Source: a virus
Taxonomy: Duplodnaviria; Heunggongvirae; Uroviricota; Caudoviricetes
Virus record (IMG/VR): IMGVR_UViG_2700989168_000004
Length of the DNA: 37,712 nucleotides
Strand: one strand, 5' to 3'
Every line of letters begins with the position of its first letter. Within the stretch, counting starts at the first letter, position 1. The notes beneath the pieces were generated by a model. The model made no database searches. It was not told where the DNA came from and saw nothing but the letters and a program-made list of their open reading frames with translations. Of the stretch, positions 1,715 through 13,228 are shown piece by piece. A program made the translations under genes and the position numbers.

Positions 1715-2077
1715 TTAACGACCTGCTGCGCGGAGTTTTCCGTCAGGTTCACCGGCAAGAGTCAGTAACTGTCCCTGGTCTTCCTGCAGAATAGTCAGGC
1801 GACCACCGCGATTGACATACATCGGCGTTTCGGTGGTGTCTTCTTCGGAAATTTTCCCGCGGTTAGTCGGGCGAACATATGAGAGTTTGTGTTTGATTTT
1901 CACTCGGTTCTCATCAAACGGTTCGATTTCCAGGTTGAGCGAGACCTTACCTTTGGTTTTCGTGTTCATCACACCGGAAGCGACTTCACTGAGAACTGCG
2001 CCGATTTTGGTTTCAAATACGCCGCCGTCCAGCTCCCCGATAAATGCCTGCACATCAGTACTGCGTTCGCTAGCCAT
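1715..2077 (-). CDS. yfdP: hypothetical early protein (YfdP-like, 120 aa)
   Basis: ATG at 2075-2077 preceded by GAGGAG RBS; the longer track ORF (to 2395) extends into a GC-rich stop-poor region and is rejected. The 120-aa product MASERSTDVQAFIGELDGG... matches the size expected for yfdP. Confidence 0.5.
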   Translation of the reverse strand: MASERSTDVQAFIGELDGGVFETKIGAVLSEVASGVMNTKTKGKVSLNLEIEPFDENRVKIKHKLSYVRPTNRGKISEEDTTETPMYVNRGGRLTILQEDQGQLLTLAGEPDGKLRAAGR

Positions 2078-2125
2078 TTTGCTGCTCCTCATCATATCGA
2101 CCCTGCAAGGTCGGTTAGTTTCTCC

Positions 2126-2214
2126 ACAAAACAGAGAAGAACACCTGCGGTGACTGCCGCCCGGATGGATTGGGTTATGAGCCCGTCGTCCGGTGATGCT
2201 CTTCTCTGTTTTGT
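2126..2214 (-). terminator. long stem-loop (perfect 15-bp inverted repeat ACAAAACAGAGAAGA / TCTTCTCTGTTTTGT around a 59-nt GC-rich loop); candidate tL-type terminator or processing site upstream of yfdP-like gene
   Basis: Arms at 2126-2140 and 2200-2214 are exact reverse complements; the 3' arm ends in UUUUGU on either strand. Sits between the upstream cargo and the yfdP RBS. Confidence 0.3.
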
Positions 2215-2481
2215 AAAAAGGACGGTACCAGCCGGAAGCAAGGGTACAAGCTGGTACCGCCAAGACTACACACAGCATAAAGTTGTGGTGCCGGGTGCCT
2301 CCCGGTGCCTGGCGAAGGTTGCACACCAGGCGGGTGGGTATCCACAGAAGGTCGACTGTCAGCCTCAACCTTAACCCGCGTGCGCTGAGCCGCATTCACC
2401 ACAACGCTAAGGATTCTCTCTGGTTGAAAATACTTAGCTGTTATGTGCCTGCTTTTAGCCACATCAGGCGAGGTGGACCTA

Positions 2482-2545: not shown

Positions 2546-2980
2546 ATGTCCGGTAATATCTATACGCTGTACAAATCCCACTGTGAAAATGTTGGAAAGT
2601 ATCGGGGCATTGAAATCAGTGGGGTAGTGTCATCAGTCGAAATAAGCAAAGTTGAATCAAGGGCAACATTACTTACTCTTTTGGACCTTGTCTTACATGA
2701 GCACCGGAAGAAATTCGGCACTCCCTATAATCAGTTGAATGGGAAAAAGGCTCTGGTTCACCTTATTCTGATGAAGCATCACTGGATGCCAAAACAGATT
2801 AATGAGATGAAATTTGATGAACTTCTTCTTTCAATTCAGGATGAACTCACACTTGATAAAATAAGCGTAACCGCCCAGAAATTTTTAGATTATCGAGACT
2901 GGAGATCACAAATTCATCACTTTGATGATTTTGACGAAAATGAATGGGATCCTAATTTGTCTGCACAATATCTAAAGTAA
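2546..2980 (+). CDS. hypothetical 144-aa protein, AT-rich cargo gene (function unknown)
   Basis: ATG with AAGGA RBS; coding region visibly AT-richer than flanking phage backbone; followed by a plus-strand intrinsic terminator; no recognisable motif or TM segment. Confidence 0.6.
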   Translation: MSGNIYTLYKSHCENVGKYRGIEISGVVSSVEISKVESRATLLTLLDLVLHEHRKKFGTPYNQLNGKKALVHLILMKHHWMPKQINEMKFDELLLSIQDELTLDKISVTAQKFLDYRDWRSQIHHFDDFDENEWDPNLSAQYLK

Positions 2981-3158
2981 CATCCTGTGATAAAACCGTG
3001 ATTTCCTGATCCAGTTTTTTTAAGGAGTCTATTGTTTCCTGTCGATAAGACAGCACTTCACGAAGCTGGTTTATAGCTGCCAGCTTCTTTGTCATCCACT
3101 CATAAATTTCCTCATCTGTGTAGCCAGGCGCGACGATTTTGGGTTCTGTTTTGTGCAT
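2952..3158 (-). CDS. hypothetical 68-aa protein, first ORF of the leftward PL transcript; convergent with and overlapping the 3' end of the 144-aa gene
   Basis: Strong RBS (GAGGAG, 7-nt spacer) before ATG at 3156-3158; the track start at 3173 is less likely. No arginine-rich motif, so not an obvious N homolog. Confidence 0.5.
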   Translation of the reverse strand: MHKTEPKIVAPGYTDEEIYEWMTKKLAAINQLREVLSYRQETIDSLKKLDQEITVLSQDVTLDIVQTN

Positions 3159-3202
3159 TTCACATCTCCTCAAGTTATCAGTTACTTGTTGATGGGGACC
3201 AG

Positions 3203-3215
3203 ATTGTTAAAGAGC
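3203..3215 (-). promoter_or_regulatory. boxA-like element (GCTCTTTAACAAT) in the PL leader RNA
   Basis: Minus-strand sequence GCUCUUUAACAAU matches the rrn/lambdoid boxA core (Nus factor binding) and lies just 3' of a hairpin in the leader. Confidence 0.45.
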
Positions 3216-3217
3216 TA

Positions 3218-3243
3218 AGCGTCCTGTAGGGCGCTTTTTTGTT
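3218..3243 (+). terminator. rho-independent terminator after the 144-aa cargo gene
   Basis: Stem AGCGTCC / GGGCGCT (one G-U wobble) with 4-nt loop, followed by TTTTTTGTT on the plus strand; on the minus strand the same hairpin has a C-A mismatch and no U tract. Confidence 0.55.
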
Positions 3244-3320
3244 GCTAACGAATCATCCTGGACTTCATATGCCCCAGGCGGCTACTTCGTGGGCGTCCTG
3301 CCTGTTCGTTGTTTCGCTTG

Positions 3321-3353
3321 GGTACATTATGTATCTCAAAGGTACATTGTCAA
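3321..3353 (-). promoter_or_regulatory. PL-type early-left promoter with embedded operator (OL)
   Basis: Minus strand reads TTGACA - 16 nt - CATAAT; the spacer contains a near-palindrome ATGTACC-5nt-GATACAT sharing the GTAC half-site with the OR palindromes. Confidence 0.55.
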
Positions 3354-3355
3354 GT

Positions 3356-3380
3356 ATAAAAAAACCTGCCGAAGCAGGTT
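3356..3380 (-). terminator. rho-independent terminator downstream of the repressor gene
   Basis: Minus strand: AACCTGC-UUCG-GCAGGUU followed by UUUUUUAU, directly after the cI stop. Confidence 0.6.
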
Positions 3381-3392
3381 CATAAACATTGA

Positions 3393-4067
3393 TTAGGCTT
3401 TGATTTTGTATCTTCTTGGTTTTCCTGAGAAAATCACTGTACCAATTATAGAGCAATTACCGTTGATCTTAATGTAAGGCTCAGGCCAGTTTGGGTTTAA
3501 CGCTTTGAGATAACGCTGTGTCCCATCTTCTATCAACCTTTTGAAGGTGGTTTCGCCTGTATCGTGCATCAATGCAATAACGTCGTCACCGTGGCAGGCA
3601 GGTACTTCAGGATCGACAAAAATCATGTCTCCCGGGCGGTACTCATCAATCATTGAATCACCTATCACCCGCAAGATATAAGTCATTTCCCCACAGGGTA
3701 CAGGGCAGGGATACGTTTCTGCTGTGCTCAAATCAACCTCAGAATATCCAACTTCTTTCCATGCTCCGGCCTGTACCCATGATATGACAGGGACTAATGT
3801 GATTTGTTTATTAGTGATTGAAACATCAGGTTTTTTTGTGATGTTCGTTGTCTGGTGTTCTTGATCGAGCCATCCGACAGGCAGGTCGAAACATTTTTCG
3901 ATGTGTCGTGCCATGCTGTCACCGATATTTTTAGTAGCACCATCTCCCATAAACCTGCTGGTCTGGGTTGGCTCGCGATCAATCATAGTGGCAAAGGAAG
4001 AATTCCCGCCAACACCATCTCTCAGTTTTCTGGCGTTAGACCGCCGGATGTCATGGATTGTTTTCAT
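3393..4067 (-). CDS. cI: CI-type prophage repressor (N-terminal HTH, C-terminal S24 LexA-like peptidase domain)
   Basis: 224 aa; C-terminal segment with ISWVQAGAW...GDSM-like autocleavage domain pattern; divergent from a Cro-like gene across a region with palindromic operators. Confidence 0.85.
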   Translation of the reverse strand: MKTIHDIRRSNARKLRDGVGGNSSFATMIDREPTQTSRFMGDGATKNIGDSMARHIEKCFDLPVGWLDQEHQTTNITKKPDVSITNKQITLVPVISWVQAGAWKEVGYSEVDLSTAETYPCPVPCGEMTYILRVIGDSMIDEYRPGDMIFVDPEVPACHGDDVIALMHDTGETTFKRLIEDGTQRYLKALNPNWPEPYIKINGNCSIIGTVIFSGKPRRYKIKA

Positions 4068-4157: not shown

Positions 4158-4358
4158 ATGAAAGCGTATTGGGACTCTTTAACCAAAGAACAGCAGGGCG
4201 AGTTGGCCGGAAAAGTTGGCTCAACACCTGGCTACTTACGGCTGGTTTTCAATGGCTATAAAAAAGCCAGTTTTGTGCTGGCTAAAAAACTTGAGCAATG
4301 CACGTCAGGTGCAATTACGAAATCTGACTTAAGACCGGATATCTATCCGAAAGATTAG
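4158..4358 (+). CDS. cro: Cro-like HTH regulator (66 aa)
   Basis: Short ORF starting at ATG 4158 after GGAGG, divergent from cI; the longer track ORF from 3855 is antisense to cI and rejected. Confidence 0.7.
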   Translation: MKAYWDSLTKEQQGELAGKVGSTPGYLRLVFNGYKKASFVLAKKLEQCTSGAITKSDLRPDIYPKD

Positions 4359-4389
4359 CAGAACACTTTCAATTTTTAACCACAGAACG

Positions 4390-4953
4390 ATGAGGCTAAC
4401 CGTGGGTAAGCATCACTGGAAAATAGAAAAACAGCCTGAGTGGTACGTGAAAGCTGTCAGAAAAACTATCGCGGCGTTGCCGGGTGGTTACGCTGAAGCG
4501 GCTGACTGGCTCGATGTAACAGAAAACGCTTTATTCAACCGCCTTCGTGCAGATGGCGATCAGATTTTCCCGCTGGGATGGGCAATGGTTTTACAGCGTG
4601 CTGGTGGCACTCACTTCATTGCTGATGCTGTGGCGCAGTCTGCAAATGGCGTCTTTGTGTCTCTTCCTGACGTCGAGGATGTGGACAACGCCGATATCAA
4701 CCAACGCCTGCTGGAAGTCATTGAACAGATCGGCAGTTATTCAAAACAGATTCGTTCAGCAATTGAAGACGGTGTAGTGGAACCGCATGAGAAGACAGCA
4801 ATTAACGATGAGCTGTACCTCTCAATTTCGAAGCTGCAGGAGCATGCAGCACTGGTCTACAAAATCTTTTGCGTTTCAGAAAGTAGTGACGCCCGCGAGT
4901 GTGCAGCTCCGGGCGCCGTGGCGTGTCGTGACTGTGGAGAAACTAACGCATGA
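4390..4953 (+). CDS. early regulatory protein, possibly CII-like (Phage_CP76 / YdaT-like), tentative
   Basis: 187-aa ORF immediately after cro, the position occupied by cII-type regulators; family guess from memory only. Confidence 0.4.
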
Positions 4954-5288
4954 ACAGTTTAACAACACACTACCGTCGCTCGCAACTGATTGCGCTTCCT
5001 GTACCGGGTGGAAAAGCGAAGGTGGAGTATTGCTATGCAGTAAATGTACTAGGTGACAGGGAAATTGTAACCCACAGCTTTGCAGAGTGGGCTGTGGGTG
5101 ATTTCAACCGGCAGAAGGAGACAGTCCTTTGCGACAAGTTAACCGCTGGTTCAAAGATCACTACGGAGTGCCCGTCAGAGTCATTCGTTGGGAGCCGGAA
5201 ACACAACGGGTTATCTACCTCCGTGAAGGCTATGAGCATGAGTGCTTCAGCCCGCTCGAACAGTTTCGTTGTAAATTCAGGGAAATAG
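4950..5288 (+). CDS. hypothetical protein; frame uncertain (possible frameshift into an overlapping frame ending at 5308)
   Basis: ATG at 4952 overlaps previous stop; the C-terminal half is Ser-rich and low-complexity, whereas the alternative frame (AAGGAG RBS, TTG at 5129) gives a more protein-like sequence. Confidence 0.3.
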
Positions 5289-5297
5289 AGGTCGGTC

Positions 5298-6239
5298 ATG
5301 AGCACTAAATTAACCGGCTATGTATGGGATGGTTGCGCTGCGTCAGGCATGAAATTATCCAGCGTGGCAATTATGGCCCGCCTGGCTGATTTCAGTAATG
5401 ACGAAGGTGTGTGCTGGCCATCAATTGAAACCATTGCCCGTCAGATTGGCGCGGGGATGAGTACCGTCAGAACGGCTATCGCACGGCTGGAAGCAGAAGG
5501 CTGGTTAACGCGTAAGGCGCGTCGCCAGGGTAACCGCAATGCGTCGAATGTTTATCAGCTTAACGTTGCGAAGCTTCAGGCAGCGGCATTTTCTCAACTG
5601 TCAGATTCTGACCCGTCAAAATCTGACGCATCAAAATCTGACCCGTCAAAATTTGATGCGTCGAAATCTGGCAAAAAAGCGGGTTTTCACCCGTCAGAAT
5701 CTGGCGGGGATCCGTCAGTAAAATCAAAACATGATCCGTCAGATAAAAAAACTTCTCGTCCGGACGCTTCGCAACCGGACACGCAGACGGCTGAACAGGA
5801 GTTTTTAACTCGCCATCCTGATGCGGTTGTATTCAGCCCTAAAAAGCGCCAGTGGGGAACGCAGGATGATTTGACCTGCGCACAGTGGCTCTGGAAAAAA
5901 ATCATCGCCCTGTACGAGCAGGCCGCCGAATGTGACGGCGAGGTGGTTCGTCCCAAAGAACCGAACTGGACAGCCTGGGCAAACGAAATTCGCCTGATGT
6001 GTGTGCAGGATGGTCGTACTCACAAACAAATCTGCGAGATGTACAGCCGCGTCAGCCGCGATCCGTTCTGGTGCCGTAACGTGCTCAGCCCGTCGAAGCT
6101 GCGGGAAAAATGGGATGAGCTTTCCCTGCGCTTATCGCCGTCCGTCAGCACGTACACAGAAAAACGCGAAGACCCGTACTTCAAAGCCAGTTACGACAAC
6201 GTGGACTACAGCCAGATCCCGGCAGGATTCAGGGGGTGA
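5298..6239 (+). CDS. replication initiation protein (lambda O-like, N-terminal HTH) with internal origin iterons
   Basis: 313 aa; N-terminal HTH-like segment; central repetitive linker (SDPSKSDASKSDPSKFDASKS) encoded by tandem DNA iterons, as for lambda ori within O. Confidence 0.7.
   Translation: MSTKLTGYVWDGCAASGMKLSSVAIMARLADFSNDEGVCWPSIETIARQIGAGMSTVRTAIARLEAEGWLTRKARRQGNRNASNVYQLNVAKLQAAAFSQLSDSDPSKSDASKSDPSKFDASKSGKKAGFHPSESGGDPSVKSKHDPSDKKTSRPDASQPDTQTAEQEFLTRHPDAVVFSPKKRQWGTQDDLTCAQWLWKKIIALYEQAAECDGEVVRPKEPNWTAWANEIRLMCVQDGRTHKQICEMYSRVSRDPFWCRNVLSPSKLREKWDELSLRLSPSVSTYTEKREDPYFKASYDNVDYSQIPAGFRG
5601..5750. repeat. replication-origin-like iterons (about 13-bp units, GTCA(A/G)AAT(C/T)TGAC, 14-15 bp periodicity) followed by an A-rich tract
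   Basis: At least five tandem copies plus degenerate copies (CCGTCAGAATCTGG, CCGTCAGTAAAATC, CCGTCAGATAAAAAAAC) inside the O-like gene. Confidence 0.6.
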
Positions 6240-6241
6240 TC

Positions 6242-6730
6242 ATGAGTCTTTTGAATGAAGTTCAGAAATACATTGAAGCCCATCCGGGCTGTACTTCCGG
6301 AGATATTGCGGATGCTTTTGCCGGTTACTCACGGCAGCGCGTTCTGCAGTCAGCAAGCAAGTTACGTCAGAGTGGGCGTGTGGCTCACCGTTGTGAAGGA
6401 GATACACGCAGACATTTCCCGCGCCTGACTGAGAGAGCGCAGGAACCGGAACCACAACCAGTTCGTGAAACCAGACCTGTGCGCAATTTCTATGTCGGCA
6501 CTAACGATCCCCGTGTGATTTTGTGCCTGACCCGCCAGGCGGAAGAACTGGAGTCCAGGGGCTTATACCGTCGTGCTGCAACGGTGTGGATGGCGGCATT
6601 CCGTGAAAGCCACTCCCAGCCAGAACGAAACAATTTTCTGGCGCGTCGTGAGCGGTGCTTACGGAAAAGCAGCAAGCGCGCTGCATCGGGTGAAGAGTGG
6701 TATCTGTCAGGGAATTACGTGGGGGCTTAA
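6242..6730 (+). CDS. PerC-like transcriptional regulator (tentative)
   Basis: C-terminal region LESRGLYRRAATVWMAAF resembles the PerC/Pch family motif as I recall it; ATG at 6242 follows AGGGGG RBS and overlaps the O stop. Confidence 0.4.
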   Translation: MSLLNEVQKYIEAHPGCTSGDIADAFAGYSRQRVLQSASKLRQSGRVAHRCEGDTRRHFPRLTERAQEPEPQPVRETRPVRNFYVGTNDPRVILCLTRQAEELESRGLYRRAATVWMAAFRESHSQPERNNFLARRERCLRKSSKRAASGEEWYLSGNYVGA

Positions 6731-9918: not shown

Positions 9919-9935
9919 TTTTGTGGAGAAAGTTG

Positions 9936-10313
9936 ATGCGTGATATTCAGATGGTTCTTGAGCGTTGGGGAGCGTGGGCGGCTAATAATCATGAAGATGT
10001 GACCTGGTCGTCCATTGCCGCCGGTTTTAAGGGATTAATTCCTTCAAAAGTAAAATCTCGCCCACAATGTTGTGACGATGACGCGATGATCATTTGCGGG
10101 TGCATGGCCCGTCTGAAAAAGAACAACAGCGATTTGCATGATTTATTGGTGGACTATTATGTCGGCGGCATGACTTTTATGGCGCTTGCACGTAAGCATG
10201 GGCGATCTGATTGTTGGGTTGGCAGGATGCTCCAGAAAGCTGAGGGCGTAGTGGAGGGTATGCTGATGGTGTTGGATCTCCGATTGGAGATGGATGCTGA
10301 TTGTTCGAAATAA
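9936..10313 (+). CDS. late-gene antitermination protein Q
   Basis: About 125 aa with conserved Cys cluster ([16 protein letters not shown]), located immediately upstream of a short leader plus terminator and the late region; GGAGA RBS before ATG 9936. Confidence 0.75.
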
Positions 10314-10468: not shown

Positions 10469-10993
10469 TTATTGTTTAACCCATAATAATTCATTGACAT
10501 TGAATCCCAACTTTTGAGCGGTTCGCACATAGTCTGCTTTTACTTTATCTGGAATAGTTGGGGTCCTTGCCAGAATCCATAGGTATTCTCTGTTCGGACC
10601 ACTGACAAGAGCATACTTATACTCATCATCCAGTTTGATTACATTATAGCCACCATAGAAGGGGCCAAAAAACGAAACCTTCAATGCTGCAGTTTTAGTA
10701 TCTCCAGTAAAGTATGCTTTACCTTCGCTCTCGCTCCATTTATTTTTCGTTGGATCGTATCCACGGTTAAGTACACGAATCCCTCCGTCGTTCCGTTTTC
10801 CATAAGTAGCGCTGACCTGTTCCAGATCACGTTCGAACCGGTTCTCGAGGCGAGCTATTTCATACCATTTTCCGAGGTAGCGGTTGGCGTCAAAATTTGT
10901 AATCGGCTGCACACCTTTAGGTGGTGTCGGGGCCTTACATGCTATAAGAGTGAAAGAGAGTGCAATGCCAGTCAACACAGGCCATAACTTCAT
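10469..10993 (-). CDS. blc: outer-membrane lipocalin (Blc homolog) lipoprotein
   Basis: Signal peptide with lipobox (LIAC), and long colinear matches to E. coli Blc as recalled (NFDAxRYLGxWYEIAR, KVSFFGPFYGGYNVI, YLWILxRTP). Confidence 0.9.
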   Translation of the reverse strand: MKLWPVLTGIALSFTLIACKAPTPPKGVQPITNFDANRYLGKWYEIARLENRFERDLEQVSATYGKRNDGGIRVLNRGYDPTKNKWSESEGKAYFTGDTKTAALKVSFFGPFYGGYNVIKLDDEYKYALVSGPNREYLWILARTPTIPDKVKADYVRTAQKLGFNVNELLWVKQ

Positions 10994-11185
10994 AATAAAT
11001 CCTGTACTTTTGATAGTTGAGAGTAAGTATGAAAGATAGATGATTACGACCGATCACTTAAAGAACTTTCATACTATATTAGGAATAGTCCATAACAGAA
11101 AAATTGTCAGTGATGACGCCAGAAAGGCAATTTATTCCGTGCACTACACAGTTTATGTGTTAATGAATTAGTCAAGGGGGAGAAT

Positions 11186-12145
11186 ATGATAAAAAAACCT
11201 GTGATTGGAATCAGCGGTTGTTTGGCCGGTTCTGCTGTTCGTTTTGATGGTGGTCACAAAAGAGCTGACTTTTTAATGGACAAATTAGTGGAATGGGTAA
11301 CATTCAGACCAGTATGTCCGGAAATGGCTATAGGGCTGCCAGTTCCGCGTCCTGCTCTACGTCTTGTGCGCTCGACGCAAGGAAATATACGGATGTGTTT
11401 CAGCCACGACCAGAATGAGGATGTGACAGAGAGAATGACAGAGTTTAGTCGTTCTTATATGGACAAATTAAAGGATGTATCGGGGTTTGTGGTTTGTGCT
11501 AAATCTCCCAGCTGTGGCATGGAGCGCGTGCGTGTCTATGATGAAAATGGTAATCGAGGTCGTAAAGATGGAGTGGGACTATTTACGAGTACTTTGATGG
11601 AAAAGTTTTCCTGGCTACCGGTTGAAGAGGATGGGCGATTACATGATCCAGTGCTTCGTGAGAATTTTGTTGAAAGAGTTTTTGCTTTGCATGAGCTCAA
11701 TCACCTTTACAAGGAGAAATTATCAAGAAGAGAGTTATTAGCTTTTCATAGTCGTTATAAGCTTCAGTTGTTGTCGCATAGTCAGGCAGGCTATAAAGAT
11801 ATGGGACCATTTGTGGCTGCAATACACGAGTGGGCGGACCTTGAATCATACTTTGAGGTGTATCGTGATAAGCTGATGGCGATTCTCAGAAAACCTGCAT
11901 CACGTAAAAATCACACGAATGTGCTGATGCATATACAGGGGTATTTTAGTAACTACTTAAGTACACGCCAGCGTAAAGAGTTGAGCGAGGTTATACTTAA
12001 CTATCGTTCTGGCACATTACCTCTTCTTGCGCCGTTGACTCTGCTGAAGCATTATCTGGGTGAGTATCCTAATGATTACTTGCTTACACAGAATTACTTC
12101 GATCCCTATCCGGACGAACTGGCTCTAAGACTGATGGTAAATTAA
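11186..12145 (+). CDS. DUF523 (TudS-like thiouracil desulfurase family) - DUF1722 fusion protein (tentative)
   Basis: N-terminal GISGCLAG..VRFDGG and further conserved Cys residues resemble DUF523; C-terminal half resembles YbgA/DUF1722; RBS GGGGGAG before ATG. Confidence 0.5.
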   Translation: MIKKPVIGISGCLAGSAVRFDGGHKRADFLMDKLVEWVTFRPVCPEMAIGLPVPRPALRLVRSTQGNIRMCFSHDQNEDVTERMTEFSRSYMDKLKDVSGFVVCAKSPSCGMERVRVYDENGNRGRKDGVGLFTSTLMEKFSWLPVEEDGRLHDPVLRENFVERVFALHELNHLYKEKLSRRELLAFHSRYKLQLLSHSQAGYKDMGPFVAAIHEWADLESYFEVYRDKLMAILRKPASRKNHTNVLMHIQGYFSNYLSTRQRKELSEVILNYRSGTLPLLAPLTLLKHYLGEYPNDYLLTQNYFDPYPDELALRLMVN

Positions 12146-12496
12146 TTGTATGCGATATCATCCAAAAGGATGAGTTCCTGCATGCAGGATATTTACAATC
12201 GTAAAAACTACACTATGATACCCAGAGTGTCAGTTTGTATAAAAACTCTGTTTACGCTGAAGAAACAATTGAGATGCAACTTAAAGTTGGTAAACATGCC
12301 AGTCAAAATATATAATATTATGATTCCACGCAGCTATATATAATATAACAGATTGGTTTAATAATTTGTCTTTGTGAGTTAAATACATAATTTTATACTT
12401 GTGATGCAATGAAATTTTCCTTATTGTTGAACTTGCGAATATTGATTTTCCACCTATACTTACCTGGTGTAACCCCAATGATATCAGGTGGATAAT

Positions 12497-13228
12497 ATGC
12501 CATACATATGTTCTATCATTTTGGTGTTGAACTCGTTTGATGTCCGAATTGGTAAAGAAGATATTTTGTTTAAAAAAGGAAGTGCTGTTCTCATTGATTA
12601 CAATTTAAAAGATTTTTTTTCATCAAATATAGATCATGTAATGATCGTAGATGTTGAAGAGAAAACAGTTAATGATTTCTTTAAAAGCAACACACTCTCA
12701 CCTTTTTCTGTAAGAAGGTTTTATCCGGCATACTTGATGGTGGAATGTGAAGATTTTTCATTGTTAAAGAACTTGATTGCATGCTTGAATTGTGATGGCA
12801 GAACTGTGGATTTTGTTAGAAATCAAATATCACTTGCATGTCTTGCTATCTTATCTTCAGAGAAAATAGTGCAAAGTTTTTTATTTGGATGTCTTAATAG
12901 TTTAGGAAGTAAAGTTAAGGCTATTATTCACACGGATATATCTGCAGCATGGAGACTTTGTGATATATCTTCAAGACTGTATCTGAGTGAAAGTCTGTTA
13001 AAAAGAAAATTAAAGCACGAAGGCTTATCATTTAGTAAGTTAATTCTTGAAGAGCGAATGGTGATGGCGGAAAGGTTATTAAGCTACAATTTATATTCTG
13101 TTGGAAAAGTTGCTGAGATATGCGGTTATGAAAACACGTCATATTTTGTGAGTGTTTTCAGAAGATATTTTGGTGTTCCTCCCCATCAATATTCATCAAG
13201 ATTTTTTTTAGAAAAAGACATGATGTAA
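12497..13228 (+). CDS. AraC-family transcriptional regulator
   Basis: C-terminal dual-HTH AraC signature (...KVAEICGYENTSYFVSVFRRYFGVPPHQY); gene is strongly AT-rich; ATG 12497 after AGGTGG. Confidence 0.85.
   Translation: MPYICSIILVLNSFDVRIGKEDILFKKGSAVLIDYNLKDFFSSNIDHVMIVDVEEKTVNDFFKSNTLSPFSVRRFYPAYLMVECEDFSLLKNLIACLNCDGRTVDFVRNQISLACLAILSSEKIVQSFLFGCLNSLGSKVKAIIHTDISAAWRLCDISSRLYLSESLLKRKLKHEGLSFSKLILEERMVMAERLLSYNLYSVGKVAEICGYENTSYFVSVFRRYFGVPPHQYSSRFFLEKDMM

Follow-up and report, generated by a model that had tools for sequence, protein, structure and literature searches.

A conserved rrn-type boxA next to a one-way terminator in the PL leader of enterobacterial phages without a recognisable N protein: a candidate site for N-independent use of host Nus factors

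To our knowledge, phages that use the host Nus factors always do so through an N protein and a nut site composed of boxA and boxB, the put RNA of phage HK022 being the only protein-free exception. The put sites are antiterminator RNAs that act without a protein; they are about 70 nt long, contain two stem-loops, and occur as related copies after both PL and PR. On the host side, the functional boxA consensus derived from experiment is GYTCTTTAANA (PMC5725501), and the rrn antiterminator complex reduces both Rho-dependent and intrinsic termination in vitro (PMC6614801). A stand-alone boxA gives Nus-dependent protection against Rho at CRISPR arrays (PMC7665894); these sites, described in Salmonella and Vibrio, and the boxA of the suhB 5' UTR act without N or boxB, ahead of Rho-sensitive RNA (PMC7665894, PMC5725501).

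The window, that is, the whole stretch of 37,712 nucleotides analysed here, derives from a temperate phage of the SfIV/e14 type; positions 2900-3500 match Shigella phage SfIV at 97.5%, and the region is shared in parts with SfV, PhiR29/PhiR49, Kati and other E. coli phages. On the minus strand, the cI-type repressor gene (3393..4067; Peptidase_S24, the same as e14 ymfK and the cI of SfIV and SfV) is followed by an intrinsic terminator (3362..3381), annotated as a terminator in SfV too, and by a PL promoter (3326..3353; TTGACA-N16-CATAAT, 11/12), at the place where a promoter is annotated in phage Ayreon. The PL transcript is deduced from the sequence to start at about 3319, and the leader, some 161 nt up to the start of the first ORF at 3158, contains a conserved 71-nt RNA element (3245..3315, minus strand), an A/T tract with a hairpin (3217..3242) and a boxA (3199..3215, minus strand).

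The 13-nt boxA that an earlier note on this DNA had placed in this leader is borne out: GCTCTTTAACAAT, at 3215-3203 of the minus strand, is the sole exact copy in the whole window, and by our arithmetic about 0.001 exact copies of the 13-mer are expected over 75,424 positions. The core GCTCTTTAACAA occupies 3215-3204, and the next T extends the span to 3203; it fits GYTCTTTAANA and UGCUCUUUAACAA exactly and is identical at 13/13 positions to the boxA of the K-12 rrnH leader, TGCTCTTTAACAAT. The transcribed element is composed of GCUCUUUAACAA (3215-3204) and a 3' extension UCUGG. The order of hairpin and then boxA, also proposed earlier, is likewise correct, the hairpin AAGCGCC-CTACA-GGaCGCTT (3236-3217, minus strand) ending 1 base 5' of boxA. 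No family was matched when the PL leader was searched against Rfam, either at gathering thresholds or at E<=10. A chance match as the origin of the boxA is excluded by its single exact copy in the window together with the conservation statistics given below; another match to the suhB-type consensus, GTTCTTTAACA at 12762-12772 (minus strand), lies antisense in the AT-rich AraC-family ORF 12488-13228 and is probably due to chance. The preferred reading, to which we give an even chance, is that the stand-alone boxA would load NusB/NusE and the host Nus complex onto transcription from PL, across about 860 nt of untranslated RNA, much as happens in rrn operons and at CRISPR arrays.

The conservation of the site was assessed on a set assembled without reference to boxA: the hairpin alone was scanned for, and a match was kept if the tail of the leader element was also found upstream, which resulted in 21 distinct modules. 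All 21 carry GCTCTTTAA-N-AA, with boxA positions 1-9, 11 and 12 invariant, and position 10, the N of the consensus, is C in 15, A in five and G in one; the spacer between hairpin and boxA is A, C, G, T or none, and the sequence is random past about 24 nt from the boxA start. On this pattern, the boxA is genuine and under strong purifying selection, although part of the conservation of the module could reflect recent horizontal spread, given that the hairpin stems are invariant. The module is found in 762 of 5,426 complete E. coli genomes (~14%), in prophages of several other Enterobacterales genera and in the isolated viable phages SfIV, Kati and PhiR29, and an exact 20-mer across hairpin and boxA occurs 123 times in IMG/VR contigs and phage records; no feature is annotated beneath the match in the records listed for complete E. 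coli genomes. In every context with upstream sequence, the module is preceded, at about 180-250 nt, by a repressor gene of the same orientation; at least nine repressor types are represented upstream and at least 21 different sequences downstream. The earlier note had made its proposal depend on conservation of the boxA in related phages; this holds for the genomes and modules just mentioned, but not for all phages of the same immunity, as the module is missing from SfV and K-12 e14, whose repressor, PL and leader element are the same. Judging from these two elements, which do without it, the module is dispensable for such operons. In the e14 ymfK-ymfJ intergenic region (leader L307, 780-960), the repressor, PL and the 71-nt element stand directly before ymfJ, with no hairpin-boxA, so that the standard laboratory strain offers, as SfV does, a ready-made comparison without boxA.

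A second scan, with one genome per species and the leader element as sole query, retrieved 59 enterobacterial leaders, including eight with the hairpin-boxA module, one with a degraded copy and four with a consensus boxA without the hairpin. The hairpin-free boxA thus occurs in 4/51 leaders (one of Kluyvera and three of Xenorhabdus), against a chance expectation of about 2e-4 per leader. The degraded module, AAAAAGCACCCTACTAAACGCTTTTCTTTTTAAAACTCTGGATATCC, is located about 30 nt 3' of the leader element on a Serratia symbiotica contig (L265) and holds the only broken boxA. In one Xenorhabdus leader (L280), boxA is followed by a canonical boxB, AGCGCUGAAAAAGCGC, forming a nutL, and then by an ORF for an N-like protein with an arginine-rich motif (ARM), NARKRRHERRKELQ; in two others (L282, L291), boxA precedes a different hairpin and an N-like ORF with the ARM YAARRYERRAAFLAKKQQ. 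In L280, where this region covers 4300-5900, the nutL and the ARM ORF are separated by two ORFs that look like an inserted transposase. The presence of a hairpin-free boxA in the same leaders, as part of a nutL with an ARM ORF in Xenorhabdus, points to the sense strand as the functional one.

These Xenorhabdus prophages, in which boxA, a hairpin and an N-like ARM gene come after the same leader element, also give rise to another explanation: the boxA may be what is left of a nutL after accessory genes took the place of its boxB and N, or a mosaic boundary kept by frequent recombination, in either case with no present function. Recombination breakpoints on both sides of the module and the invariance of the hairpin stems are consistent with it. 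This explanation is nevertheless unlikely, since the spacer, the loop, position 10 and the flank have diverged freely, whereas 11 boxA positions are retained in 21/21 modules; furthermore, the sole degraded copy comes from a Serratia symbiotica genome, and lambda-type nut sites do not have the 7-9 additional nt that the module has in common with the rrn spacer.

The similarity to rrn extends beyond the boxA core. The 3' extension of boxA, AATCTGGAT, is conserved in 18-21 of the 21 modules, and the family consensus GCTCTTTAA[C/A]AATCTGGAT equals the boxA region of the K-12 rrnH 16S-23S spacer, GCTCTTTAAAAATCTGGATcaag, over 19 nt, with several members being exact; the copy of the window, GCTCTTTAACAATCTGG, agrees with the same spacer at 16/17 positions. 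The conserved block may have been captured from the host spacer antiterminator or may mimic it by convergence. No mention of a resemblance between a phage leader boxA and the rrn spacer was found in the literature searched, and this phage boxA was not seen among those E. coli, Shigella and Klebsiella rows of the supplement to the 2017 boxA survey that were examined. With the rrn antiterminator (NusA/B/E/G, SuhB, S4), the module shares the boxA core, the 19-nt spacer identity (family consensus GCTCTTTAAAAATCTGGAT), a hairpin 5' of boxA and, on the preferred reading, the lack of a need for a phage protein. The two differ in that the phage module has no boxC, its 5' hairpin, with a hypervariable loop, is built to terminate on the opposite strand, and the transcript is that of a phage early operon and not rRNA. 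Neither boxC nor a GU-rich element of the UGUGUGGG type was found 3' of boxA, and the 3' flank, AAUCUGGAU, is that of the rrn spacer.

The boxA sites of CRISPR arrays and of the suhB 5' UTR resemble the phage site in being single consensus copies in an untranslated leader (PMC7665894, PMC5725501), and differ from it in that the phage boxA belongs to a mobile element, comes immediately after a promoter under repressor control and is fused to the terminator of a convergent gene. The suhB case also suggests a role of opposite sign, in which Nus factors bound at boxA would repress translation of the 68-aa ORF, with Rho termination and reduced expression of the leftward operon as the outcome. In the window, boxA is 44 nt upstream of the ATG of this ORF, within the 50-nt range reported for suhB-like candidates (PMC5725501), its Shine-Dalgarno (SD) sequence lies about 30 nt downstream of boxA, and a weak, AU-rich 5-bp hairpin at 3188-3171 overlaps the SD. 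In most of the 21 contexts, boxA is followed by no forward ORF and instead by the stop codon of a convergent gene, so that attenuation of the suhB type cannot explain the conservation of the module across the family; as an account of the locus it is rather improbable.

Regarding the hairpin, the proposal that it corresponds to the boxB of rrn operons finds no support. On the plus strand, it forms an 8-bp stem, AAGCGTCCTGTAGGGCGCTT, with one U.G pair and a stability of -11.0 kcal/mol, followed by TTTTTTG; on the PL strand, the U.G pair becomes a C.A mismatch, the stem falls to -6.5 kcal/mol and the tail is UAGCUCUUUAAC. With that stem and tail, the PL-strand structure does not qualify as an intrinsic terminator, whereas the plus-strand structure does. 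The loop is hypervariable, with 13 variants among the 21 module copies, and all 13 show the same asymmetry, the hairpin averaging -11.7 kcal/mol when read antisense and -6.8 kcal/mol when read in the sense direction; the antisense strand thus has the hairpin more stable by about 5 kcal/mol and also the U6 tract. Loop hypervariability and strand asymmetry argue that the hairpin is not a boxB-like protein site. In almost all of the 21 downstream contexts, boxA is followed, 15-41 nt from its start, by the stop codon of a convergent gene; these reverse-oriented genes, of 144-255 aa, come from six or more unrelated families. The strand asymmetry and the adjoining stop codons therefore point to the hairpin as the structure that ends transcription of convergent accessory ("moron") genes. 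Intrinsic terminators that insulate morons also consist of a GC-rich stem and U6 located 3' of independently acquired, reverse-oriented genes; the difference is that the U.G/C.A asymmetry conserved here makes the terminator unidirectional, and that it is permanently coupled to a boxA on the other strand. A second terminator-like hairpin, GAAGCTGG..CCAGCTTC followed by TTTGTC, is found at 3062-3087 of the plus strand, within the antisense of the 68-aa ORF and between the 144-aa gene and the main terminator.

A terminator so clearly built for the convergent strand could suggest that the whole module works on that strand, either as the 3' UTR and terminator context of the convergent genes or as a DNA site (a GGATATCC palindrome), the boxA identity being incidental; in most contexts, the complement of boxA indeed lies between the stop codon of the convergent gene and the terminator. 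Such a role is quite improbable. The convergent genes come from six or more unrelated families and meet the module at varying points, which assigns the module to the leader side; boxA also appears without the hairpin in these leaders, as well as within a nutL; the window lacks the GGATATCC palindrome; and an incidental identity of 13-19 nt to the rrn boxA is very unlikely.

The preferred reading, recruitment of host Nus factors by boxA, is also supported by the lack of an N system of the usual type. A screen of all ORFs of the window revealed no N-like ARM protein in the early region, and the first PL ORF (2952..3158, minus strand; phrog_1744; SD GAGGAG) encodes a 68-aa acidic coiled-coil protein with no RNA-binding motif and, as the earlier note had read from it, no arginine-rich one. 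In the PR operon, a 164-aa protein (6236-6730, plus strand) has a PerC-family domain and an arginine-rich C-terminus, ARRERCLRKSSKR, superficially similar to an N motif; this arginine-rich stretch, at 6521-6730, was rejected as an N motif because it belongs to the PerC-family C-terminus. The second boxA and hairpin that the earlier note suggested looking for downstream of PR did not materialise: the window scan found no consensus copy near PR, and the nearest candidate, ACTCTTTAACCA at 4174-4185, is located inside cro and breaks two of the invariant positions. A boxB hairpin with a conserved loop 3' of boxA is also absent, the only strong hairpin being the one 5' of boxA and the weak one at 3188-3171 being specific to the context of the window. 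With the lambda and P22 nut sites, the phage leader shares the location of boxA, at the nutL position of the PL leader, and its Xenorhabdus relatives have, after the shared leader element, a true nutL together with an N-like ARM protein; the phage differs by having no 3' boxB, no N or ARM protein and no nutR, and by a boxA of the rrn type and not of the lambda CGCUCUUA type. The mEpimmI phages, described as Nus-dependent and non-lambdoid, are not the same case, as they have an N-like protein, Gp17, and nut sites. It is very improbable that some unrecognised phage factor, the 68-aa protein or another early product, uses the hairpin and boxA as a nut site in reverse order, since, for all that the 68-aa gene is widely conserved and holds the N position as first gene of PL, the hypervariable loop argues against specific recognition by a protein, and the 68-aa family has no RNA-binding motif, follows a basic, possibly N-like ORF in one Xenorhabdus leader (L264) and is found in leaders without boxA too.

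On the right side, the Q-type late antiterminator that the earlier note had assumed is indeed encoded at 9921..10313 (plus strand; Phage_antitermQ, PF06530). From cro to Q, the PR-side ORFs taken as genes abut or overlap, with gaps of <=31 nt, the gap between cro and the cII-like gene being 31 nt; with no larger interruption before Q, the PR operon would have no need of a boxA device. Between Q and the lysis genes, an accessory block (10469-13228) contains a reverse-oriented lipocalin gene (10469-10993), a 2-thiouracil desulfurase/DUF1722 gene (11186-12145) and an AraC-family gene (12488-13228). A genuine boxA in the PL transcript, the absence of N and nutR, and the presence of Q together make N-independent, Nus-dependent control of leftward transcription the best hypothesis.

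The 71-nt element that precedes the module (3315-3245, minus strand) is a conserved RNA in its own right, with an almost invariant 5' part of 30 nt and tail, GGAUGAUUCG. One 5-bp stem covaries (93% of cells paired, 29 double changes, 0/500 shuffles as high), and the signal drops clearly when the partner columns are slid; the covariance model gives 96.5 bits for the single copy of the window. The element had no match in Rfam. Of 5,426 complete E. coli genomes, 1,531 carry it. Phages such as SfV, SfII and ST64B have it as well, ZF40, YeP1 and mEp237 show weaker matches to parts of it, and it occurs in prophages of Xenorhabdus, Serratia, Yersinia, Pantoea, Erwinia, Kosakonia and Buttiauxella, among other genera; it also precedes the true nutL/N sites of Xenorhabdus. 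Like the put RNA of HK022, it belongs to an N-less phage of lambdoid type and is a conserved, structured RNA of about 70 nt, from about +10 of the PL transcript; unlike put, it has one supported stem instead of two, no copy on the PR side, and co-occurs with N and nut in some phages. Homology with put was discarded, because the blastn families are disjoint and the covariance model finds a single copy in the window and no hit in HK022. All these N-less leaders contain the 71-nt element, which makes it a candidate for a general elongation-control element to which boxA is an add-on, and it could represent a second, new class of cis-acting elongation-control RNA. Another motif, AAACGUUCCGC(C)..GGCGAUAAGG, recurs in the leaders of other phages, where it either precedes the hairpin-boxA module or adjoins the 71-nt element (leaders L005, 2960-3000; L131; L137; L174; L176; L183; and L308, from mEp237, 1590-1625). 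PL leaders look like strings of exchangeable RNA modules.

From 2951 to 2095, the PL transcript runs for about 860 nt without a forward ORF and includes the antisense of the 144-aa gene (2546..2980, plus strand; phrog_5286, annotated in SfIV as SfIV_36), an STnc100/PasD-like prophage sRNA (2212..2435, minus strand) and the terminator of this sRNA; the next translated early-left gene is similar to yfdP/SfV orf32 (1715..2095, minus strand). Beyond the sRNA, yfdP- and yfdQ-like genes follow, with xis and int also there in the relatives SfIV and SfV. The 3' ends of the 144-aa gene and of the 68-aa ORF overlap by 29 nt, and transcription from PL runs antisense through the former, for which no consensus promoter was found. 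The sRNA (RF02076) scores 43.4 bits, against a gathering threshold of 47, with E=2e-7, and ends in a strong intrinsic terminator at about 2258-2205, with a stem of about -23 kcal/mol followed by UCCUUUUU. Only one rut-like stretch (C>G), a modest one, occurs, near 2630, and suggests some sensitivity to Rho. The arrangement of sRNA and terminator recurs in ST64B and Ayreon. Divergent homologues of the 68-aa protein are encoded in Xenorhabdus and Kluyvera leaders, and a small forward ORF of its family together with a convergent gene is also seen in leaders L028, L274 and L299; a PADLOC scan of the 68-aa and 144-aa proteins and two convergent proteins of phrog_1244 retrieved nothing significant.

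According to the Nus-recruitment reading, the two strands of the module would have separate tasks. On the plus strand, the hairpin with its U6 tract would stop transcription of the convergent accessory gene before it reaches PL and cI. On the PL strand, the same hairpin is weakened by the C.A mismatch and followed by a poor U-tract, and boxA would emerge 0-1 nt beyond it, to be bound as RNA by the host NusB-NusE(S10), for which GCUCUUUAACAAUCUGG and GCUCUUUAAAAAUCUGGAU are the predicted targets. NusB-NusE would then nucleate the host Nus complex (NusA, NusG, SuhB) on the RNA polymerase coming from PL, a loading that would require neither phage N nor boxB. The polymerase modified in this way may resist Rho and, possibly in part, intrinsic terminators, and could cross the approximately 860 nt formed by the antisense of the 144-aa gene and the sRNA with its terminator to reach the early-left genes.

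A connection between boxA and long untranslated regions reaches significance only in a sample of leaders that is biased by its collection. There, leaders with boxA have their first forward gene at a median of 792 nt, against 156 nt in the others (p=5e-4), and a reverse-oriented gene comes first in 25/38 and 13/34, respectively (p=0.03). Comparable arrangements with no boxA also weigh against the reading: ST64B has an untranslated leader of 700 nt and the same kind of sRNA terminator, and leaders L257, L274 and L299 contain convergent genes. The same holds for the module-free SfV and e14, the missing boxC and the single, modest rut-like stretch.

A broader reading can be offered tentatively, at somewhat below an even chance: in a large group of N-less temperate Enterobacterales phages, the PL leader would hold a copy of the host rrn-spacer antiterminator, boxA and 3' flank, which would recruit the host ribosomal antitermination complex without any phage factor. 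Fused to the strand-asymmetric terminator, this copy would form a 45-nt cassette that blocks antisense and licenses sense transcription, and the new class of elongation-control RNA suggested above for the 71-nt element forms part of the same tentative reading. No earlier description of this phage leader element was found in the literature searched. What would be new is that boxA/Nus antitermination, itself well known, serves a phage that lacks N, from a boxA joined to a unidirectional terminator.

If this interpretation is true, a stand-alone rrn-type boxA in the early leader of a phage would be a third route to the host Nus factors. The non-ribosomal roles of boxA, recognised recently in suhB and the CRISPR arrays, would then reach mobile elements, which about 14% of complete E. 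coli genomes carry, and such a route would help to explain how N-less phages of the SfV/SfIV/e14 type transcribe through reverse-oriented accessory genes and non-coding RNA. A one-way terminator fused to boxA would also be a neat design principle for adding convergent genes to an operon.
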